A stretch of DNA of 64,000 nucleotides from contig NZ_DASQOG010000210.1 in the NCBI RefSeq assembly GCF_035644575.1, positions 10,363-74,362 of the forward strand, read 5' to 3'. The notes below the pieces were generated by a model. That model did not search any database. It had not been told where the DNA came from and worked only from the letters and a program-made list of their open reading frames with translations. This DNA comes from Desulfovibrio sp. (GTDB taxonomy: Bacteria; Desulfobacterota; Desulfovibrionia; Desulfovibrionales; Desulfovibrionaceae). The translations under genes and the position numbers were made by a program. Shown here piece by piece: positions 55,266 to 60,386 of this stretch. The first letter of the stretch is position 1. Each line of letters begins with the position of its first letter.

Positions 55266-57713
55266 ATGCCTGTTGTTCCCTTTCAAAGCGGTGAAACAGC
55301 CGAGCCCAAGGGTTATGCGATCAACTGGAGCACTGCGGCAAGCCGCCTGACCGACCTTAAGGAATTTCTTCTCAATGCCCCGCAGGTCATGGACCCGGAA
55401 CGGCTGCAATTTCTTGATGAGGTTTATCAGGAGTTCAACGGCGAGCACACCTTCTACAAGCGGGCCAAGTTGCTCGAACGCGTGTTGCTCAAGAAGAAGA
55501 TATTCCTGGACGGAAACCCTATTGTGGGCACGCTGACGGGCACTCGCGCCGGTGTTTACGCTTATCCTGAATGGAACGTGGCCTGGATCAAGGAAGAAAT
55601 GCAGATGGCCAAAATGGCCTCGCTCGGCGAAATGAAGATCCCGCAGGAAACTCAGGAGCTGCTTGAAAAAACGTATAAATCTTGGCGCGGTCACACCTGC
55701 ATCGATATAAACAACAAGCTGTTCAAGGATAAGTACGGATTCAACCCAGCGCCGTACTCCAAAGCTGGAGTGTACTATGACAACGTGAGCGTCGCCAGCG
55801 GGTCAGGCATTGCCGATTACCCCCTGGCGCTGAACAAGGGCATGCGCTGGGTCATTGATGACCTGAAGCAGCGCCTGCTTGACTGCCCCACCACGCTTGA
55901 GCGCACCAACCAGACAGAGCTGTACCGCTCCATGATTGTTGCCTGCGAAGCGGTCATCGCCCATTCCCACAGATATGCCGATCTGGCCGAGCAAACGGCG
56001 CAAACTGAGACGGATGCCGCCAACAAGGCAGAGCTGCTCGAAATCGCCGAGATTTGCCGCCGAGTCCCTGAATTTCCGGCCCGCAACTTCCGTGAAGCCA
56101 TACAGTCCTTCTGGTTCATCCATCTTTGCATTGAAACGGAGCAGATGGCCTGCGCCTGCTCACCCGGCCGCTACGGCCAGTACATGTACCCCTTCTACAA
56201 AAAGGACATTGAAGAAGGCAACATGAGCCGCGAGCAGGTGCTCGCTCTGCTCAAATTCCAGTGGATAAAGCACCTGGAACTGGCCGAATATCAGGGCGGC
56301 TCCTACGCCATGACCCTCTCTGGTCACACGGGCCAGAGCATTACCATTGGCGGGTTTGACAAGGACGGCAACGATGCCAGCACGGAGCTTGAAGAACTGC
56401 TGCTGGAAACGCAGATCCAGATGAAAAACATCCAGCCGACCCTGACCCTGCTCTACCACCCCAAGCTTAAAGATTCTTACATGCACAAGGTGGTGGAATG
56501 CATTCGTGGTGGATCCGGCCAACCGCAGATTTTGAACAACAATGTTGTTATTCAACGCACCATGAACCGCTTTGGTCAATACAAAGGCGGCATCACCCTG
56601 GAAGATGCGCGCAACGTGGGCAACTACGGCTGCGTTTCTACAGGTGTTTGCGGCAAGGGCAGCTTTATTACCCAGGAAGATCAGCCATGCCTTGCCAAGG
56701 TTGTGGAACTTCTGCTCAACAATGGCAAAGATCCGCAAACCAAAAAGCAGTTGGGCGTCGAAACTGGTGACCCCGTCGAATTCAAGAGCTTTGAGGAAGT
56801 TTACGATGCCTACAAGGCGCAACTCAAGCAGGTGTTCACTGTTTCGCGCCACCATTCTGATCTGAGCCAGATGGCGCGGCTTGAAGTGGTGCCGAGCATC
56901 TTCCGTTCCGTCATGTATGATGGCTGCATCGACAAGGGAATGTGCGAAGAAGAAGGCGGCACCCGCTACCCGCAGGTCAACCCCATCATGACCGCAGGCA
57001 TTGACGCGGCCAACTCGCTTCTCGCCATTCGGCATCTGGTGTTTGAAACCAAGTCCGTAACCATGGAAAAACTGCTGGAGGCTATTAAAGCCAACTTTGA
57101 AGGATATGAAGACATCCGGAAAATGTGCTTTAATGCGCCCAAACACGGGAATGACTATCCCGATGTGGAAGCCTTCGTGCAGCGCTTCTATCGCGACGTG
57201 GACACCATCCACGGCTCCATCGGCCCGGATTGCTTTGGCTACCGCACCCCGCTGGATGCCTATTCGCTTTCCTACCACAACTACTTTGGCGCGCTCATGG
57301 GCGCTCTGCCGAATGGCCGCAAAGCCGGTGTCGCTCTCACAGACGGCAGCGTTTCGGCCACACCGGGCACGGACCATGAAGGCATCACGGCACTTATCAA
57401 GGCTGGCGCGCAGGCTATCGACACCGTGCGGTATGGCGCAAACCACTTCAACGTCAAGCTCACGCCTGCTGCCCTGGCTGGCCCCGCAGGCGAAAGGCTG
57501 CTTGTTTCACTCATAAAGACCTATTGCGACTTTGATGGTTCGCACATCCAGTTCAACTGCGTTTCCTCCGAAACGCTCAAAGACGCGCAGAAAAAGCCGG
57601 AGGATTACCGCAATCTGGTGGTTCGCGTGGCGGGCTTCAGCGCGTATTTCACCCGGCTGGACAAAGGCGTTCAGAACGAAATCGTCAAGCGCACGGAATA
57701 TAATAACTTTTAA
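55266..57713 (+). CDS. Glycyl radical enzyme of unassigned specificity
   Basis: C-terminal LVVRVAGFSAYF glycyl loop; Cys loop NYGCVSTG with no Glu after the Cys. Confidence 0.88.
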   Translation: MPVVPFQSGETAEPKGYAINWSTAASRLTDLKEFLLNAPQVMDPERLQFLDEVYQEFNGEHTFYKRAKLLERVLLKKKIFLDGNPIVGTLTGTRAGVYAYPEWNVAWIKEEMQMAKMASLGEMKIPQETQELLEKTYKSWRGHTCIDINNKLFKDKYGFNPAPYSKAGVYYDNVSVASGSGIADYPLALNKGMRWVIDDLKQRLLDCPTTLERTNQTELYRSMIVACEAVIAHSHRYADLAEQTAQTETDAANKAELLEIAEICRRVPEFPARNFREAIQSFWFIHLCIETEQMACACSPGRYGQYMYPFYKKDIEEGNMSREQVLALLKFQWIKHLELAEYQGGSYAMTLSGHTGQSITIGGFDKDGNDASTELEELLLETQIQMKNIQPTLTLLYHPKLKDSYMHKVVECIRGGSGQPQILNNNVVIQRTMNRFGQYKGGITLEDARNVGNYGCVSTGVCGKGSFITQEDQPCLAKVVELLLNNGKDPQTKKQLGVETGDPVEFKSFEEVYDAYKAQLKQVFTVSRHHSDLSQMARLEVVPSIFRSVMYDGCIDKGMCEEEGGTRYPQVNPIMTAGIDAANSLLAIRHLVFETKSVTMEKLLEAIKANFEGYEDIRKMCFNAPKHGNDYPDVEAFVQRFYRDVDTIHGSIGPDCFGYRTPLDAYSLSYHNYFGALMGALPNGRKAGVALTDGSVSATPGTDHEGITALIKAGAQAIDTVRYGANHFNVKLTPAALAGPAGERLLVSLIKTYCDFDGSHIQFNCVSSETLKDAQKKPEDYRNLVVRVAGFSAYFTRLDKGVQNEIVKRTEYNNF

Positions 57714-57788: not shown

Positions 57789-58685
57789 ATGAGCCAAGGA
57801 ATGATTTATAACATCCAGCGTATGTCCATTCAGGACGGGCCGGGGATACGCACCACCGTTTTCCTCAAAGGTTGCCCGCTGCGATGTTTATGGTGCAGCA
57901 ATCCTGAATCGCAGCAGGTTGCCCCGCAGCTTCTGGTTTTCAGCGACCTTTGCACAGGGTGCGGTGCCTGCCTGGCCGCCTGCCCCTGTGGGGCGGCAGA
58001 GCGCCTGGAAGACGGCAAATGTGGAAAAATCGCCGAAAAATGCACATCGTGCGCTGCCTGTGCGGCAGTTTGCCCTAGCAAGGCCAGAGAAATCAGCGGC
58101 AAGACAATGACGGTTGACGAGGTGATGGAGATTGTCCACAGGGATTCAGCTTTTTATGCGAATTCCGGCGGTGGAGTCACCTTTGGCGGCGGAGAACCAA
58201 CCATGGGCGGGGATTTTTTCATTGATCTGTTGCAAGCCGCCCACGATGACGCACTGCATACCGCAGTGGACACCTGCGGGTTCTGCCCTGAAGACCGCTT
58301 TGAAAAAACCCTGAAGCTTGCCGACCTGCTGCTGTTTGACTGCAAACACATGGATCCGGTGCAGCACAAAGAGCTTACAGGGCAGGACAACGCTCTTATT
58401 CTGAAAAATCTGCACTCTGCACTTCTCTCGGGTATCGAGGTGCGCATCCGTATGCCACTCATGCCAGGCTTAAATGACAGCGATGAGAATTTTGCAGCCA
58501 TGTCCAGCTTTTTGGGCAAATTCGGGCAACAGCATATAGAAGTCATGCCTTGCCACATGTTTGGCACCAGCAAATACAGGGCATTAAACAAGCCATTGCC
58601 GCCTGTGAGCCAATATACAGCGGATTCGCTCGAAAAAACGCTGCTCAGGATGAAAAGGCATGGCTTGAAATATACTATCATATAG
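57789..58685 (+). CDS. Glycyl-radical enzyme activating enzyme
   Basis: LKGCPLRCLWCSNPE plus two CxxCxxCxxxCP clusters. Confidence 0.92.
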   Translation: MSQGMIYNIQRMSIQDGPGIRTTVFLKGCPLRCLWCSNPESQQVAPQLLVFSDLCTGCGACLAACPCGAAERLEDGKCGKIAEKCTSCAACAAVCPSKAREISGKTMTVDEVMEIVHRDSAFYANSGGGVTFGGGEPTMGGDFFIDLLQAAHDDALHTAVDTCGFCPEDRFEKTLKLADLLLFDCKHMDPVQHKELTGQDNALILKNLHSALLSGIEVRIRMPLMPGLNDSDENFAAMSSFLGKFGQQHIEVMPCHMFGTSKYRALNKPLPPVSQYTADSLEKTLLRMKRHGLKYTII

Positions 58686-58693
58686 GAGGTAGA

Positions 58694-58981
58694 ATGTTCT
58701 CAGTGGCGATTGATGAAGCAATGCTGCAAAAGCTCAGCGACATGCTTCAGGACGAAGACGAAGGAACCTGCGTCAGGCTCAGGGAATATAAAGTCGGCGG
58801 AGGCTGACACTCAAAAATCGTACTCGGTCTGGGTATGGATGAGCCAGATGAAGATGAAGACGAACAGATTTCTGTAGGCAATGTGCCGTTTACGGCAGAA
58901 AAAGATTTTCTGCTCAAATACGGCAGGGCCTTCACACTTTCTTATGTTGAAGGTCAAGGGGTAGTCGTGGCTCCAGCATAA
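58694..58981 (+). CDS. HesB/ErpA-like Fe-S carrier selenoprotein (UGA at codon 38 read as Sec; 95 aa)
   Basis: RBS GGAGG and ATG 58694. The in-frame TGA at 58805 aligns with Cys38 of the paralog. The frame continues with paralog-like sequence to TAA at 58981. Confidence 0.85.
58808..58840 (+). promoter_or_regulatory. Bacterial SECIS element
   Basis: Hairpin GUACUC-GGUCU-GGGUAU. The loop starts after 18 nt following the UGA, the same loop and spacing as the E. coli fdhF SECIS. Confidence 0.8.
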
Positions 58982-59061
58982 TAATGCTCTGGGGCATCCT
59001 CCCGTGCCGATGCGCAAATCTTTCGTATAAGAAATAAAATCCGACACTGCGGAGGTTTCAC

Positions 59062-59355
59062 ATGTTTACAGTTACAATCGATGATGCAATGTTGCAAAAA
59101 CTGCGCACAATGCTGGAAGAAGAAGACGACGGCACTTGTGTACGGCTTCGGGAATACAAGGTTGGCGGCGGATGTCATTCCAAAATCACTCTTGGTCTTG
59201 GAATGGATGCACCAGACGCTGAAGAGGACGAGCAGACCCAAGTTCACGGCGTTCCTTTTGTGGCAGAAAAAGACTTTCTGCTGAAGCACGGCAACGCATT
59301 TTCCCTTTCTTTCAGCGAGGATAAGGGCGTGGTTGTTACGGCAACAGCGGAATAG
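59062..59355 (+). CDS. HesB/ErpA-like Fe-S carrier, Cys paralog
   Basis: CVRLREYKVGGGCHSKITLGLGMD; colinear with the upstream gene. Confidence 0.85.
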   Translation: MFTVTIDDAMLQKLRTMLEEEDDGTCVRLREYKVGGGCHSKITLGLGMDAPDAEEDEQTQVHGVPFVAEKDFLLKHGNAFSLSFSEDKGVVVTATAE

Positions 59356-59374
59356 CACTCCCGCCAATACGCCA

Positions 59375-59424
59375 TTTACGCCAAAAGCCCCGCTCCGTTT
59401 CTGGAGCGGGGCTTTTGGCGTAAA
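59375..59424. terminator. Bidirectional intrinsic terminator
   Basis: Perfect 22-bp inverted repeat with a 6-nt loop between convergent genes. Confidence 0.85.
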
Positions 59425-59480
59425 TTCGCCCGCACATCGATTGCATATTCCTGGAGAGCTGCACTCCCCTGGAAGTGCAA

Positions 59481-60386
59481 TCAATTCATTATTGATTGCC
59501 TGCCATTACTGGATGGTTTGTGTGACGAGGCAATCAAAAAAACAACGCTAATCAAAATACAAGATAATCCCAGCAGAGTTTGTTGGGTGCACGGTTCGTT
59601 AAGCACCATAAAACCAAGCACGGCAGCACCTATCGGTTCGGCCAGCCCCAAGGTGGAAGTCACAGCCGCAGAAGTGGTTTTCATGCCATACAGCACCAGG
59701 GTAAATGAGAGGCTGGTTGTCAAGGTGGCAAGATTTGCGGCGACCAAAACCCCGCGCTGCGTCAGGAGCCATCCAAGCGGCTGCATACAGAGCAGCGGCG
59801 CAAGACTCAGCCCCCCGAGCAGAAAGATGACCGTCATGATCTGCGATGGATCATGCCGTTGCAGCATCGGCTTGATGGTCACAAGGAACACAGCATAGCT
59901 GCATGCCGCAAGCACGGCCAATGCCAGCCCCGGTATACTGAACTGCACTTCGCTGCCTGTGCCCAGCGTCAGCACCGCAAGGCCGCACAAGGCCAAGACC
60001 GTGCCAACATACCAGGCTCTGGCAGGTTTCTCTTTCAAAAAAAACCACCCGAGAATTCCCACGACTATGGGGCAACCACCAATAGCAACCATTGTGCCTA
60101 CAGCCACGCCAATTTGCTTGCAGGCTTCAAAAAAAAAGAGCTGATAGCCAGTCAGCCCTGCGGCAGAAATAACGATATGCAATTTCGGCCAGCCAGCAGG
60201 CCGGGGGATGTTGCGTGAAATCAGCCCCCACAGCAAAAGCACCAGCCCCCCACCCAGAAGACGAATGGCGCCGACGGCGAGGGGCGTAACGCCATCCGGC
60301 GCAAGGGCCTGTGCCGTGCCGGAAGTGCTTGCGCAGAACGCGCCGCACAAAATAGCCAATGGAGCTTTAAGAGAATATAAAGACAT
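59481..60386 (-). CDS. EamA/DMT family transporter
   Basis: About 10 TM helices; GVAVGTM and LGLAEPIGAA motifs. Confidence 0.88.
   Translation of the reverse strand: MSLYSLKAPLAILCGAFCASTSGTAQALAPDGVTPLAVGAIRLLGGGLVLLLWGLISRNIPRPAGWPKLHIVISAAGLTGYQLFFFEACKQIGVAVGTMVAIGGCPIVVGILGWFFLKEKPARAWYVGTVLALCGLAVLTLGTGSEVQFSIPGLALAVLAACSYAVFLVTIKPMLQRHDPSQIMTVIFLLGGLSLAPLLCMQPLGWLLTQRGVLVAANLATLTTSLSFTLVLYGMKTTSAAVTSTLGLAEPIGAAVLGFMVLNEPCTQQTLLGLSCILISVVFLIASSHKPSSNGRQSIMN

Follow-up and report, generated by a model that had tools for sequence, protein, structure and literature searches.

A predicted selenocysteine-containing IscA-fold protein in an operon specific to one clade of glycyl radical enzymes in Desulfovibrionaceae

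A small gene of Desulfovibrio sp. very likely decodes an in-frame UGA as selenocysteine (Sec), as judged from conservation of the UGA column, covariation in an adjoining SECIS hairpin and the presence of the Sec machinery in the genome. The gene lies at 58694 to 58981 of the window, by which we mean the whole 64,000-nucleotide stretch of DNA that was analyzed (assembly GCF_035644575.1, contig NZ_DASQOG010000210.1, positions 10,363 to 74,362), and its read-through product is a 95-residue protein predicted to adopt the IscA fold. It belongs to an operon in which a glycyl radical enzyme (GRE) is followed by its activase, the Sec gene, and a paralog with Cys at the Sec position; this operon, which is conserved across Desulfovibrionaceae, belongs specifically to one GRE clade. 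We are confident, slightly less so than for the decoding by itself, in the combination of a single Sec-decoding gene, an IscA fold and a clade-specific GRE operon. The link to the GRE clade is the most useful new fact and offers a concrete handle on that enzyme. The features of the locus, in window coordinates, are as follows.

55266 to 57713, plus strand: GRE of an uncharacterized clade, with the Cys loop Y-G-C-V-S (under all NCBIfam equivalog cut-offs; PflB alignment).
57789 to 58685, plus strand: GRE activase, immediately upstream of the Sec gene (TIGR02494, 358 bits).
58684 to 58689, plus strand: Shine-Dalgarno sequence AGGAGG of the Sec gene (read from the sequence).
58694 to 58981, plus strand: predicted Sec gene, encoding a 95-residue ErpA-related (NF033940) IscA-fold protein with Sec38 (translation with TGA as U, NF033940 score, AF2 model, purifying selection).
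58805 to 58807, plus strand: UGA at codon 38, the predicted Sec codon (opposite Cys38 of the paralog and the first conserved Cys of HI1723 in alignments).
58819 to 58837, plus strand: predicted SECIS hairpin with a 7-bp stem and the apical loop GGUCU at 58826 to 58830 (covariation in orthologs, RNAalifold, fdhF offset).
59062 to 59355, plus strand: Cys paralog of 97 residues with Cys38, NF033940 (family score, 73% identity to the Sec copy).
59379 to 59420, unstranded: candidate bidirectional terminator, a perfect GC-rich hairpin of 17 bp flanked by A and T runs (sequence).

The Sec gene begins with an ATG at 58694, 4 nt downstream of an AGGAGG that overlaps the activase stop codon, and ends at two consecutive terminator codons (TAA TAA, 58979 to 58984). 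With TGA translated as U, the product reads MFSV...KVGGG-U-HSKIVLGLGMDE...VVVAPA over 95 residues, and its full sequence is MFSVAIDEAMLQKLSDMLQDEDEGTCVRLREYKVGGG-U-HSKIVLGLGMDEPDEDEDEQISVGNVPFTAEKDFLLKYGRAFTLSYVEGQGVVVAPA. The first-pass annotation of this DNA had claimed that homology to the neighboring paralog runs on past the TGA at 58805 and that this TGA aligns with Cys38 of the paralog. Both points hold: the frame is open to the TAA, the paralog (...KVGGG-C-HSKITLGLGMDA...) is 73% identical to the Sec copy over residues 1 to 93, and its Cys falls exactly at the TGA position. An acidic run, DEPDEDEDE (residues 49 to 57, 58838 to 58864), lies directly 3′ of the hairpin and is kept in Sec and Cys forms.

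A six-frame search of 151 Desulfovibrionaceae genomes found relatives in 23, and a scan of GTDB contigs added D. desulfuricans SFAD67, D. piger, Pseudodesulfovibrio, Desulfobaculum and several MAGs. After removal of duplicates, the distinct orthologs with the TGA at a single alignment column number 24 and represent at least 12 genera. The 52 codons downstream of the TGA contain no indels in the 19 closest orthologs, and comparison with the window copy as reference, near-identical strains being excluded, gives pN of 0.17 to 0.31 and pS of 0.65 to 0.98 (saturated), which is purifying selection like that on the 37 upstream codons. Standard ORF finding and public gene calls yield exactly the 37- and 48-residue fragments expected if the TGA were a true stop, in a decayed gene or between two short ORFs. 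However, a TGA fixed at one column and followed by intact, selected codons excludes both a decaying pseudogene and two independent ORFs, there is no ribosome-binding site ahead of Met48, and the SECIS is conserved with covariation, all of which leaves a true stop extremely improbable.

The hairpin consists of seven contiguous pairs, from C58819-G58837 through C58825-G58831. Counted from the U of the UGA, its GGUC begins at nucleotide 22, with 18 nt between the A of the UGA and the first loop G. A GGUCU-loop hairpin at the 18-nt offset of E. coli fdhF had been claimed for this site, and reading both sequences confirms it: the element here and that of fdhF (K-12, NC_000913.3) have in common a UGACAC start, a GGUCU apical loop, and GGUC at nucleotides 22 to 25 from the U. 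The description as an "fdhF-type SECIS" is thus apt for the loop and the distance but not for the bulged U, which the fdhF element has and which is absent from the seven contiguous pairs of both the window copy and the consensus. The loop is here closed by a C-G pair and has five unpaired bases, and the lower stem is not conserved.

Support for the hairpin is comparative. Folding the region as a single sequence yields z-scores of −1.1 and −0.26; neither is significant, so this result was not used as evidence. An Rfam scan of 58000 to 59600 at E ≤ 10 returned no SECIS-type family, only chance matches on the terminator hairpin. In the alignment of 24 orthologs, standard pairs fill 98.2% of the stem cells and three pairs have changed on both sides. 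None of 500 shuffles of this alignment pairs or covaries as well as the real one, a shift of the 3′ arm by one to three columns lowers pairing to 18 to 44%, and RNAalifold independently picks the same 7-bp helix. The window copy itself carries a compensatory change, with GUA at Val43 and GGU at Gly47 against the usual GUG and GGC, by which a G-C pair has become A-U.

Because the LGLG peptide is common to Sec and Cys forms, the Cys paralogs serve as a natural control for coding constraint. The Leu codon in the hairpin is CTC in 20 of 21 Sec forms, the Gly codon is GGT in 19 of 21, and the second Leu codon is CTG in 19 of 21, whereas the eight Cys forms use four, three and three different codons, respectively. 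Stem cells are paired in 144 of 147 cases in Sec forms versus 42 of 56 (75%) in the eight Cys forms, most of which have the loop-closing pair broken. The hairpin in the Cys copy of the window, with five of seven stem pairs left and a loop that still reads GGUCU, is a fading, degraded remnant. In the Sec copy, the hairpin at 58819 to 58837 would recruit SelB through the GGUCU loop 22 nt from the UGA, leading to insertion of Sec38. The closest strain, D. desulfuricans SFAD67 (L051:6001-6288), has AGU for GGU at the first loop codon (Gly45Ser) and hence the loop AGUCU; the first loop G is thus not needed in that strain.

The first-pass annotation had named the Sec machinery as one thing to check, and the window genome, which is 99.99% complete, contains all of it: selA (579 bits), selB (316 bits, or 340 with the C-terminal part), selD (313 bits, itself with an in-frame TGA) and tRNA-Sec (74.5 bits; anticodon TCA according to ARAGORN). 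At least four other genes in this genome contain a TGA, namely two of FdhA type (C229:19795-20550, L062; and C153, L061), selD (C152, L010) and a classical HesB-like gene. On contig C229, the fdhF-like gene, UGACACGGCCCAUCAGUUGCAGGUCUGCAAC, has the same UGACAC...GGUCUG layout, with GGUCU at the same distance, and its SECIS matches that of E. coli fdhF almost letter for letter. Together with the column conservation and the SECIS covariation, the machinery bears out the claim that the in-frame UGA is a Sec codon in a gene of the HesB/IscA superfamily. There is only a minute chance that near-cognate suppression or the like puts another residue, for instance Trp or Cys, at the UGA: three public entries (P0014, P0077 and P0088) do show Trp at the Sec codon (GGGWHAK and similar), but these evidently come from gene calling with TGA read as W, in the style of table 4, and the homologous residue is Cys, the Sec machinery is complete, and a hairpin of SelB type follows at the canonical spacing.

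The first-pass annotation supposed that the gene is mis-annotated as a pseudogene; what public protein sets show is Cys forms listed under the NCBI family name and Sec forms present only as fragments or misreadings. Besides the Trp entries, these are 37-residue N-terminal pieces, C-terminal pieces of ~48 to 56 residues, and one 85-residue piece that starts from an upstream TTG. Because the Sec forms are broken up in this way, selenoproteome counts are too low for gut Desulfovibrio (D. desulfuricans, D. piger). The NF033940-type family is small, with 133 representatives among 1.84 billion clusters (E ≤ 1e-3), and many of these are fragments or spurious matches to long acidic-repeat proteins, the latter caused by the DEPDEDEDE run. 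In a sample of 401 genomes across the phylum, the family is found in five; two of the five are outside Desulfovibrionaceae, and both of these have Sec forms. One Sec-type copy (L035, G129:C14:8845-9030), in a genome that has no GRE of the clade, is broken in its C-terminal half and is probably a decaying remnant.

The Sec form scores 129.3 bits and the Cys form 144.3 bits with NF033940 ("ErpA-related iron-sulfur cluster insertion protein"; cut-off 65). An AF2 model built from a 22-sequence alignment (pLDDT 91) has the IscA/SufA/ErpA fold. Foldseek matches to this model include 1s98, 1r94, 2d2a and 1x0g, with TM scores of 0.65 to 0.72 to 1s98 and 1r94, and the best match is B. subtilis YneR/PdhI in a modelled pyruvate dehydrogenase complex (9a4q_B, 21% identity). 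A sequence search of the PDB with the small protein returned only HI1723 (E = 9e-4). Sec38 is placed in a Gly-rich turn between strands 26-34 and 41-49 and aligns with the first ligand Cys of the ErpA-like HI1723; to judge from the secondary structure of the model, Cys26 and Sec38 would lie at opposite ends of one strand. The protein thus shares with the A-type carriers IscA, SufA and ErpA both the fold and the Gly-rich loop that bears the first ligand Cys. It differs from them in using Sec, in scoring below the threshold of Pfam Fe-S_biosyn (PF01521; 18.2 bits against 26.3), and in lacking the two C-terminal Cys ligands, since no member seen has the C-x-C of A-type carriers. Nor is Cys26 conserved: relatives have Y, V, A or F in its place. 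Among ~40 full-length cluster representatives, the loop Cys or Sec alone is general, so one of the three A-type-carrier cysteines is kept. The genomic setting also differs, as A-type carriers are encoded in isc or suf operons and this protein in a GRE operon.

The gene had been called "HesB-like," which is right for the HesB/IscA superfamily but not for the known HesB-like family. With NF038090, the HesB-type selenoprotein model (cut-off 85 bits), the Sec form gives no match at E ≤ 0.01 and the Cys twin reaches 22.5 bits. As the first-pass annotation stated for deltaproteobacteria, HesB-like selenoproteins are indeed known from Desulfovibrio: 11 members, including ones from D. vulgaris and "D. 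desulfuricans," were reported by Zhang et al. 2006 (PMC1794560), and a 2026 review lists the family as TIGR01911 with the motif UxGP (PMC13188914). All 11 sequences of the 2006 supplement have G-U-[SG]-G-P and Cys/Gly/Ser-rich tails, and none is of the REYKVGGG-U-H type (PMC1794560). The two families (the known one being TIGR01911/NF038090) are alike in superfamily, in size, in a Sec loop position that aligns with the first HesB/IscA Cys, in their occurrence in Desulfovibrio and in forming Sec/Cys tandem pairs. They differ in that the known family has G-U-x-G-P and a Cys/Gly/Ser-rich C-terminal tail, whereas the protein described here has GGG-U-H-S/A-K (U-H-S-K in the window), ends in ...VVVAPA with no such tail, belongs to another NCBIfam family, NF033940, has a different SECIS, and is strictly linked to a GRE.

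The same genome contains a classical HesB-like Sec copy as well (C189:359-655, TAG-U-GGPRL...GGCSSCSSGCGSNA, with a Cys-rich tail). This copy is part of a Sec/Cys tandem pair of its own (C189:3-655; L070 and L071), has the SECIS loop UGGAU ~29 nt after its UGA, and scores 84.6 bits with NF038090, just under the cut-off of 85. By sequence, then, the Sec family at the GRE locus is a relative of the known HesB-like selenoproteins but separate from them. With it the HesB/IscA superfamily gains a second family that uses Sec, one that is not found in the supplement of PMC1794560 or in Table 1 of PMC13188914. The terms "NF033940" and "ErpA" are absent from the 2026 review (PMC13188914). A literature search returned nothing relevant on "ErpA-related" proteins or on a glycyl-radical link to HesB or to Desulfovibrio selenoproteins, and only incidental co-mentions of selenocysteine with ErpA.

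The order GRE, activase, Sec copy and (where present) Cys copy recurs in almost every related locus; a few loci have the order GRE, copies, activase, or three to four tandem copies. Neighbors of the operon include a sigma-54 activator, an EamA transporter, an amino-acid permease, DUF4125 and TauE. The hairpin at 59379 to 59420 lies between the convergent Cys-copy and EamA genes and, to judge from its sequence, is probably a bidirectional terminator that closes the operon; its chance Rfam matches include Thr_leader, at 32 bits against a cut-off of 55.

Across the 151 genomes, GRE matches are bimodal in their identity to the window GRE, and the small gene follows this division. All 24 complete GRE genes with 47 to 100% identity, from 20 genomes, have an ErpA-related gene within ~1.5 kb; a partial GRE match in genome G135, cut by the contig end, has none. 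Some 75 other GRE genes, with at most 41% identity, are without an ErpA-related gene except for one Cys copy in genome G108, which is convergent to a GRE of 30% identity and lies ~8.5 kb from the main cluster. Within the window genome, the pair is found at one of four activases and at one of two matched GRE genes.

The GRE itself is 79 to 84% identical across eight other genera and ~30% identical to any solved GRE. Against solved structures it scores 412 bits with CutC, 402 with glycerol dehydratase, 401 with HypD and 340 with IslA. An assignment to IslA/HpsG was rejected, as 340 bits to 7kq3 and ~346 to 5ymr are no better than the scores with other GREs. In an alignment with PflB, the Cys loop is PFL-like and reads Y-G-C-V-S where PflB has A-C-C-V-S, and the enzyme is thus without the C418 of PFL and without the eliminase Glu.

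The occurrence of the small gene with one GRE clade, together with the three of four activases that have no pair, argues that the small protein serves this GRE clade and not activases generally. We give about an even chance to a role in which it works on or with the GRE catalytic subunit as a dedicated partner acting through its loop selenol. This functional reading rests on the gene neighborhood and the missing ligands. The Sec or Cys protein would be a dedicated small partner of its GRE system, on the model of the small subunits of other GREs or of degenerate IscA-fold proteins that dock on an enzyme, and the selenol or thiol of the loop would be its sole conserved reactive group. Small subunits particular to one GRE clade are known: HpdC of 4-hydroxyphenylacetate decarboxylase and BssB/C of benzylsuccinate synthase bind a [4Fe-4S] cluster with four ligands. 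Like the Sec/Cys pair, these small proteins have their genes next to a single GRE clade, in some cases as several copies; their folds are unrelated to that of the IscA-fold protein, for which a subunit role is putative.

A less likely role, which we rank second, is the one suggested by the first-pass annotation, that of a Sec-containing A-type Fe-S carrier, which would load or repair the [4Fe-4S] clusters of the adjacent activase. The IscA/ErpA fold, the Sec at the first cluster-ligand position, the usual position of the gene directly after the activase gene, and the NCBI family name "iron-sulfur cluster insertion protein" are all in keeping with such a carrier. Clade specificity and the missing ligands make a canonical carrier role unlikely, however: the C-terminal C-x-C is absent in all members seen, Cys26 varies among relatives, the Fe-S_biosyn score is below threshold, three of the four activases of the genome have no such partner, and in some loci (L036 and L039) the GRE is followed by the copies while the flank contains no activase. 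The proposal of an Fe-S carrier for the activase is therefore weak, and we infer that the small protein is something other than a canonical Fe-S carrier with three cysteines.

IscA-fold proteins without the full Cys set can act by docking on a client enzyme, as does the degenerate A-type-carrier domain of NfuA. PdhI/YneR of B. subtilis, which likewise has an IscA fold without the full Cys set and acts by docking, inserts a loop residue into the active-site entrance of pyruvate dehydrogenase E1 (PMC10090944). We consider it improbable, and rank third, that the small protein is a regulator or plug of the PdhI/YneR kind, which would dock on either the GRE or the activase so as to block or gate its active site. 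Its best structural match is YneR in the modelled pyruvate dehydrogenase complex, but the identity of that match is only 21%, and a pure steric block needs no invariant Sec or Cys, let alone the costly selenocysteine. PdhI/YneR and the NfuA domain, unlike the small protein, have no invariant Cys or Sec, and docking of the small protein is putative.

Returning to a dedicated partner of the GRE, we speculate, as a long shot, that the Sec/Cys38 loop may enter the enzyme in trans as the missing second chalcogen, serving as a radical or H-atom relay or as an acceptor of an acyl or leaving group. If true, this would be a two-component glycyl radical enzyme whose selenol is carried by a subunit of its own. 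An IscA fold with one invariant selenol and no canonical cluster binding points to chemistry not yet described for GRE systems, and reconstitution of the GRE should include the small protein.

The pairing of Sec and Cys copies has a history of its own. Phylogenetically, Cys copies cluster with the Sec copy from the same lineage, a grouping strongly supported at four points of the tree, and at least six switches between Sec and Cys are forced. This suggests either repeated duplication with change from Sec to Cys or gene conversion between neighboring copies. The Cys twin is probably a selenium-independent backup, a role that fits because both the Sec and the Cys forms are kept. In the Sec/Cys isoenzyme pairs of Methanococcus, one function is served by a Sec gene and by its paralog with Cys (PMC11097638), which is likewise consistent with a backup for selenium shortage, the difference being that the pair described here is in tandem within one operon. 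Two loci (L039, G034:C32; and L036, G071:C119) carry three to four tandem ErpA-related copies that alternate between Sec and Cys after the GRE. Two of their Sec copies have a two-codon insertion (C-U-x-K-N-L-Q), and the hairpin is shifted accordingly.
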